DNA of 57,948 nucleotides from the NCBI RefSeq assembly GCF_003334315.1, contig NZ_QOWR01000026.1; one strand, given 5' to 3'. The notes under the pieces are model-generated. The model made no database searches and was not told the origin of the DNA. It saw only the letters and a list, made by a program, of their open reading frames with translations. This stretch comes from Escherichia coli (GTDB taxonomy: Bacteria; Pseudomonadota; Gammaproteobacteria; Enterobacterales; Enterobacteriaceae). The number at the start of each line of letters is the position of its first letter. Position 1 is the stretch's first letter. Shown in pieces: positions 57,517 to 57,744 of the stretch. A program made the translations under genes and the position numbers.

Positions 57517-57744
57517 AAGTGCATCCAAAACGAATTTGCGAGAGAAAGAAAATGGCGTGTCGGAGAATGAATTGCAACACAAAAATAACAAATTGAATGA
57601 TATTTATTTTTATTTCAATAATTTTGAATTAATAATGAAAGAATCTTCATAAGTTTAGTGGGTTCAGCATCAGAGATGTCTGGTGAGTGCTGTAGAAGCA
57701 GGAATAATCTCATTCAATTTTTCACGCTAAATGAAAGGGAGATT

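Follow-up and report, generated by a model that had tools for sequence, protein, structure and literature searches.

The right end of the analysed Escherichia coli sequence (the window, i.e. the whole stretch of 57,948 nucleotides) is best read as an IS1 element, carrying a minority variant of its terminal inverted repeat (IRL), that inserted in the AT-rich yceO-yceJ spacer of a phylogroup-A-like strain and altered the regulation of yceJ; we put the probability of this overall reading at about 0.68. The IS1 upstream of yceJ is a routine IS1 insertion polymorphism in AT-rich intergenic DNA, a well-known class, and it matters little, since such polymorphisms are routine in E. coli and the yceJ-yceI operon is dispensable. 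A modest by-product of the analysis is a map of the conserved elements of the yceO-yceJ spacer, which are testable candidates for the control of a stress-induced operon; induction of yceJ by heat shock, by Cpx and by Lol inhibition has been reported.

An IS1 terminus in the yceO-yceJ spacer

IS1 is 768 bp long, has terminal inverted repeats of about 23 bp, encodes insA followed by insB' via a programmed frameshift, and generates a target duplication of 8-9 bp. The junction at 57744/57745 is a precise IS1 terminus, as the first-pass annotation had proposed. The sequence GGTGATGATGCCAACTTACTGAT, read from 57745 on the plus strand, is the canonical IRL with one mismatch, where the number of matches expected by chance is 0; 22 of the 23 positions of the terminal inverted repeat at 57745-57767 (plus strand, minority variant GGTGATGATGCC) match the canonical IRL GGTGATGCTGCCAACTTACTGAT, and 203 of the 204 positions of 57745-57948 are identical to IS1A copies in other E. 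coli. The sole mismatch is an A for C at IS1 position 8. This variant is infrequent, with the best match of the first 56 nt reaching at least 99% in just 363 of 9,310 IS1-bearing records, among them ETEC H10407 and ATCC 8739. The window ends with the first 204 nt of the 5' end of the element (57745-57948, plus strand, IRL inward), a region annotated as IS1 family transposase in matching genomes, and the remaining 564 nt of the 768 bp lie outside it. In complete IS1 copies the transposase CDS begins at IS1 position 56. The window holds the corresponding 5' part of insA (57800-57948, plus strand), and because 57800-57946 translates to the InsA N-terminus, insA transcription reads away from yceJ. 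IS1 at 57745 is thus oriented away from yceJ.

The gene next to the junction is a complete yceJ of the cytochrome b561 family (56950-57516, minus strand; K-12 counterpart WP_000011114.1), followed by its downstream partner yceI (56371-56946, minus strand). The pair, named yceJI in the literature, is kept across relatives. IS1 begins 228 bp upstream of the yceJ ATG (57516, minus strand), and the 100% identity of 57300-57744 to E. coli K-12 and many other strains stops exactly at its terminus. In the numbering of our K-12 locus reference (L001), yceJ starts at 2717, yceO occupies 2978-3091, and identity to the window runs up to 2945; the K-12 yceJ-yceO spacer is therefore 260 bp long, and its first 228 bp (L001 2718-2945) are identical to 57517-57744 of the window (minus strand, 32% GC). 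This agrees with the AT-rich stretch of about 230 bp described in the first-pass annotation, and the gene order given there, yceI-yceJ-yceO-solA, is that of K-12. The suggestion that IS1 interrupts the neighbouring gene is refuted, as the junction is inside the 260-bp spacer, 32 bp beyond the yceO stop codon in K-12 coordinates, where nothing is annotated; judged from this comparison, IS1 breaks no annotated gene here. The alignment outcome that would have refuted the first-pass reading, a 57517-57744 that is the whole native spacer, was not obtained either, because 32 bp are missing relative to K-12.

It is probable that the IS1 at 57745 connects to yceO as a simple insertion, because most of the neighbouring mapped IS1 copies have clean 8-9-bp duplications. 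A simple insertion of the kind seen in those copies would have duplicated the 9 bp AGGGAGATT (57736-57744), and would put AGGGAGATT-AAATATTTGTCAGTTTATGTCAG (from AGGGAGATT-AAATATTTGTCAG onward), then yceO, on the far side of IS1, so that an intact yceO is expected to lie beyond the element.

The retained spacer had also been described as containing only a 33-codon minus-strand ORF at 57615-57713. The ORF exists (32 aa from an ATG, i.e. 32 codons plus the stop), but "only" is slightly too strong, as there are further short ORFs on the plus strand (57506-57652, 57519-57596 and 57658-57771), and on the minus strand two more reach into 57517-57744, namely 57494-57580 (28 aa) and an extension of the yceJ frame that starts from a TTG and goes up to 57591. 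As a small protein-coding gene 57615-57713 was rejected, given that neither its frame nor its start is preserved in relatives: its counterpart in E. coli S9 and A1.S1.18 (92% identity) has an in-frame TAA at codon 17, its ATG is ATA in Escherichia SCPM-O-B-8794, and in other genera the region is poorly conserved, with indels. By these comparisons the ORF is spurious and not coding. For annotation this means that yceJ is intact, that yceO is presumably intact too, and that the ORF should stay uncalled. The SCPM-O-B-8794 record (NZ_JAATUR010000009.1), labelled Escherichia coli, encodes a YceJ 87% identical to that of the window and has a markedly different spacer; this divergence makes a different Escherichia species or a cryptic clade the probable source.

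The window junction, as a single alignment and in either IS1 orientation, was found in none of 5,426 complete E. coli genomes, and a comparison with metagenome contigs gave no matches. IS1 is present within about 650 bp in 18 of the 5,426 genomes, twelve of which were mapped, and all but one of the mapped copies have 8- or 9-bp duplications (counted as ten of eleven or as eleven of twelve). The NCTC9104 copy is in the spacer at the window equivalent of 57640-57648. Those of GmM062, AL.H8 and UTME-9 are all at 57618-57626, the centre of a conserved palindrome discussed below, with the duplications TAATTTTG or ATAATTTTG; the GmM062 element is an IS1X4 in one orientation, and the AL.H8 and UTME-9 elements are IS1B in the opposite one. 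The site 57618-57626 is a local IS1 micro-hot spot, independently struck in three lineages. In ETEC H10407 (L091 1416-2183) an IS1B with the same position-8 A variant sits at the very start of yceJ, its duplication GTGAATGAC overlaps the yceJ start codon, and the annotated yceJ extends into the IS1 end. The IS1 of Z0117EC0116 is further inside yceJ, and the remaining mapped copies are in yceO, in the yceO-solA gap and at the 3' end of solA. One of the mapped elements, that of S9 (L005 2052-2819), has no duplication and is accompanied by an adjacent loss of 146 bp, comprising the 5' part of yceO and the 3' end of solA, and so exemplifies an IS1 adjacent deletion at yceO-solA. In NCTC9104 (L003 2916-4035), solA is annotated as frameshifted, in a strain that also bears IS1 in the yceJ-yceO spacer.

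With about 11.8 chromosomal IS1 copies per genome, some 8 genomes with IS1 at this locus would be expected against the 18 seen, i.e. an enrichment of about twofold by rough arithmetic. IS1 prefers AT-rich DNA, and the enrichment fits that preference. A strong IS1 hot spot at the locus was rejected on the same figure, the micro-site at 57618-57626 excepted.

Conserved elements of the spacer and the predicted effect on yceJ

A YceJ scan of species-representative genomes yielded 80 loci. The order solA-yceO-yceJ-yceI is kept across Enterobacteriaceae, and the yceJ-yceI pair alone reaches Proteus, Xenorhabdus and Pseudomonas. The spacer is 218-296 bp long with 27-41% GC in the 22 loci measured, and an alignment of 18 genera has three conserved blocks, one proximal to yceJ, one palindromic and one distal.

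The proximal block (57550-57577, minus strand) is intact in the window and ends 33 nt before the yceJ ATG. It has the form of a sigma32-like promoter, TTGCAA-N14-CGCCATTT, in which all 18 genera share the TTG and the final T of ATTTT, and a C, a G, a C and three other Ts reach at least 90% conservation. The sigma32 (RpoH) consensus has CTTGAAA at -35, a spacer of 13-15 nt and CCCCATNT at -10. The proximal block agrees with it at 5 of 6 and 7 of 8 positions, with the strict pattern present in just 24 of 77 loci. yceJ has been called a heat-shock gene (PMC10607373), and reports of heat-shock induction fit the candidate promoter at 57550-57577. The second block, the palindrome TCAAAATTATTGA (57615-57627), is likewise conserved in the alignment and intact; C181, A183, G191 and A192 are invariant, and T180, A182 and T190 are at least 90% conserved, across the 18 genera. 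It loosely resembles an IHF site, with no exact fit to WATCAANNNNTTR.

The distal block is a tandem yTGACr-N4-yTGACr, located in K-12 directly after the yceO stop (L001 2953-2968), and in the window strain it would be beyond IS1 and outside the window. Both TGAC cores are invariant in the 18 genera. The tandem is present in 49 of 78 yceJ loci, and among these 49 it is accompanied by TTTA at +5 to +8 and by a TAAwTT-like hexamer 16 nt past the second repeat (T 63%, A 78%, A 69%, T 65% and T 78% at the respective positions). The 32 bp lost from the yceJ side thus hold the best-conserved distal element of the spacer; the 40-bp element as a whole is ACTGACATAAACTGACAAATATTTAATCTCCC. Because most genera have TTGACA in the repeats, the block reads as a sigma70 promoter. 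In E. coli it is degenerate, with CTGACA twice and then TTCATT, where most genera have TTGACA and other genera have TAAwTT. The opposite strand reads GTCAr-N5-GTCAr, i.e. pentamers at a 10-bp periodicity.

Promoter scanning toward yceJ found no consensus sigma70 promoter passing its criteria, and all weight-matrix scores were low. The interval from yceO to yceJ showed neither an intrinsic terminator nor a stable structure (fold z-score -0.72), and comparison of the spacer with Rfam gave no credible RNA family match. The literature and the transcriptome-paper supplements searched contained no transcription start sites for yceJ, yceO or yceI. Both the proximal and the distal promoter are accordingly named here as candidates, assigned by conservation and resemblance to consensus. 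We suggest, tentatively and with the odds against it, that the tandem yTGACr-N4-yTGACr may be a new control site of yceJ-yceI across Enterobacteriaceae, acting either as a distal promoter or as an operator for a response regulator, with a geometry like that of CpxR sites. If that is true, the window strain and the other IS1-bearing isolates are natural mutants that uncouple yceJ-yceI from the tandem TGAC site.

The insertion point is 7 nt past the second TGAC repeat, inside the distal block. As predicted from this position, IS1 splits the distal module, with the tandem repeat on the far side and the -10-like hexamer on the yceJ side, and leaves the putative sigma32-like promoter and the palindrome nearer yceJ intact. 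The earlier suggestion of an interrupted promoter region is thus borne out in part: a conserved distal element appears to be split, and the proximal core promoter nearest yceJ is untouched. IS1 is polar on downstream transcription. With neither an intrinsic terminator nor a stable structure ahead of yceJ, read-through from yceO and solA is plausible, and because of the polarity of IS1 it would be lost in the window strain, together with the input of the distal module, whether this is a distal sigma70 promoter or a response-regulator operator. The yceJ-yceI pair would still be transcribed from the proximal promoter.

The element may also bring a substitute. According to PMC8764528, hybrid promoters can arise from a -35 box that points outward in the inverted repeat of IS1, and gene activation by such promoters is known (PMC8764528, PMC9330008). 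In the window, the outward -35-like hexamer TTGGCA inside the IRL (57753-57758, minus strand) is 17 nt from TTCATT (57730-57735, minus strand), the E. coli counterpart of the -10-like hexamer by position-specific conservation, so that an outward -35 and a flanking -10 stand in the geometry of an IS hybrid promoter, for which the two are 16-18 nt apart. With a simple weight matrix the hybrid TTGGCA-17-TTCATT scores 6.6 bits versus 5.3 bits for the native CTGACA-16-TTCATT, both being weak, and the hybrid is by this measure the best sigma70-like site on the yceJ strand of the region. It is left uncalled by the promoter-scan tool, and it is predicted to be weak because its -10, TTCATT, has no A at position 2. 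A hybrid promoter of this weak kind may take over part of the role of the distal promoter. The net effect expected is altered regulation of a dispensable operon and no knock-out.

The strongest competitor of altered regulation, although we judge it unlikely, is that the insertion is functionally neutral, because the distal TGAC element either acts on yceO instead or has degenerated in E. coli, and yceJ-yceI rely on the proximal promoter alone. The CTGACA repeats and TTCATT that E. coli has in place of the TTGACA and TAAwTT of other genera would fit such decay, as would a yceJ strand that lacks any called consensus promoter. Moreover, Proteus and Pseudomonas keep the yceJ-yceI pair without yceO or the spacer, and at least five other independent IS1 insertions part the distal element from yceJ in natural isolates. 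Because isolates tolerate IS1 between the element and yceJ (NCTC9104, GmM062, AL.H8, UTME) or at the yceJ start (H10407), the distal element is dispensable, and in E. coli it may have no function. However, its TGAC cores do not vary across 18 genera, E. coli among them, a point in favour of continuing selection, and since no terminator follows yceO, the loss of read-through is the least that IS1 should cause. We prefer, as the more probable reading, an IS1 insertion that alters the regulation of yceJ-yceI.

The opposite end of the window and other alternatives

The left end of the window bears a second IS1 IRL end (1-204, minus strand), which is the exact reverse complement of 57745-57948 (204 of 204 positions) and adjoins a truncated cspG at base 205. 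This left IS1 meets cspG at codon 43, and the last 28 cspG codons remain (window 1-291); the truncated frame lacks a start codon and runs into a stop inside IS1. The closest relatives, such as 2018-11-3CC (L010), have an identically oriented IS1 794 bp further out, beyond cspH, with C at position 8. The 794 bp absent from the window compared with these relatives comprise cspH and the first 126 nt of cspG. Because position 8 is A in the window versus C in the relatives, the left IS1 is not simply their resident element. Between the two ends, 205-25000 and 33000-57744 each match phylogroup-A-like strains at 100% in single alignments, and on this ground a Shigella origin was rejected. The window looks like a short-read contig, i.e. 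a 57.5-kb segment from cspG' to the region upstream of yceJ that is capped by inverted IS1 stubs with the IRL inward. For assembly, such stubs flag a 57.5-kb segment of untrustworthy orientation in a short-read assembly.

This layout raises the alternative that the junction upstream of yceJ is one end of an IS1-mediated rearrangement, either an inversion of the 57.5-kb cspG'-yceJ segment or an adjacent deletion removing yceO/solA. An inversion could have arisen when the IS1 at the cspG end transposed replicatively within the same molecule, or later through recombination between two inverted copies; in either case the yceJ-side IS1 would lead into the DNA left of cspG instead of yceO. Replicative deletions and inversions by IS1 have been described (Turlan & Chandler 1995, cited in PMC9330008), and the S9 element, lacking a duplication and associated with its 146-bp adjacent deletion, is a case close by. 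The two ends of the window consist of the same 204 nt, inverted, with the IRL inward and the same position-8 base, which is the topology expected of replicative inversion; in addition, the left junction is abnormal, with 794 bp missing relative to the closest relatives that bear a same-orientation IS1. On the other hand, a layout with the same ends inward arises half the time from two independent insertions, most IS1 copies mapped nearby are simple insertions with duplications, and position 8 of the IS1 resident in the relatives is the canonical C. Weighing these, we consider a rearrangement improbable, at roughly one chance in a handful, and retain the simple insertion next to yceO as the more probable reading.

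It is more doubtful still that IS1 activates yceJ-yceI through the hybrid promoter and was selected for doing so. The hybrid is the best-scoring sigma70-like site on its strand with an optimal spacing of 17 nt, IS1 hybrid promoters are known gene activators (PMC8764528, PMC9330008), and an LPS-assembly defect is suppressed by yceJ overexpression. Against this, TTCATT is without the key A at position 2, the gain over the native site is just about 1.3 bits and the site is weak in absolute terms, and the occurrence of the junction in no other genome of the 5,426 gives no sign of recurrence or selection. Finally, that a contig end was misjoined to a repeat during assembly can be dismissed as highly improbable: the contig-like window does break off at both ends after 204 nt of the same repeat, but the flank meets IS1 exactly at the terminal nucleotide, the position-8 variant is just 8 nt from unique sequence, and the identity of the flank to K-12 is perfect through the last base.

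Relation to known systems

The candidate hybrid promoter resembles those described for IS1 (Prentki et al. 1986; afaA in ST131, PMC8764528; acrEF, blaTEM) in having an outward -35-like hexamer 16-17 nt from a flanking -10-like hexamer in the correct orientation. It differs from them in its poor -10 (TTCATT), which is 214 nt from the ATG, and in that it would replace a candidate promoter rather than activate a silent gene.

The distal element can be compared with the CpxR box, GTAAA-N5-GTAAA, which is of the OmpR/PhoB type with direct repeats. E. coli yceJ-yceI respond to CpxR overproduction, and P. aeruginosa yceJ has predicted CpxR sites, including a GTCAA half-site. The distal element shares the geometry of the box on the other strand, whereas its sequence differs, being GTCAG-N5-GTCAG in E. 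coli and GTCAA-N5-GTCAA in many other genera; unlike a plain CpxR box, the same bases read equally as two TTGACA -35 hexamers. A search of the K-12 spacer for the CpxR box found no match at up to 2 mismatches. The E. coli element has four mismatches to the consensus, and by sequence it was rejected as a CpxR operator.

With respect to its two ends, the window shares with IS1 adjacent deletions and inversions (Turlan & Chandler 1995) and with Tn9-type segments a pair of IS1 copies of one variant that bracket a segment with the same end inward. Like IS1 adjacent deletions, its left copy goes with a loss, here of 794 bp; in contrast to Tn9-type IS1-flanked segments, its copies are visible as 204-nt stubs alone.

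The nearest counterparts of the yceJ-side insertion are the IS1 elements of NCTC9104, GmM062, AL.H8, UTME-9/10/12/14 and H10407, which are 768 bp long, lie in the same AT-rich region or at the yceJ edge in either orientation, and have 8-9-bp duplications. Like the IS1 of the window, they separate the distal conserved element from yceJ. Their sites are at K-12 L001 2707-2715, 2819-2827 and 2841-2849, whereas that of the window, at 2937-2945, is inside the distal element itself.
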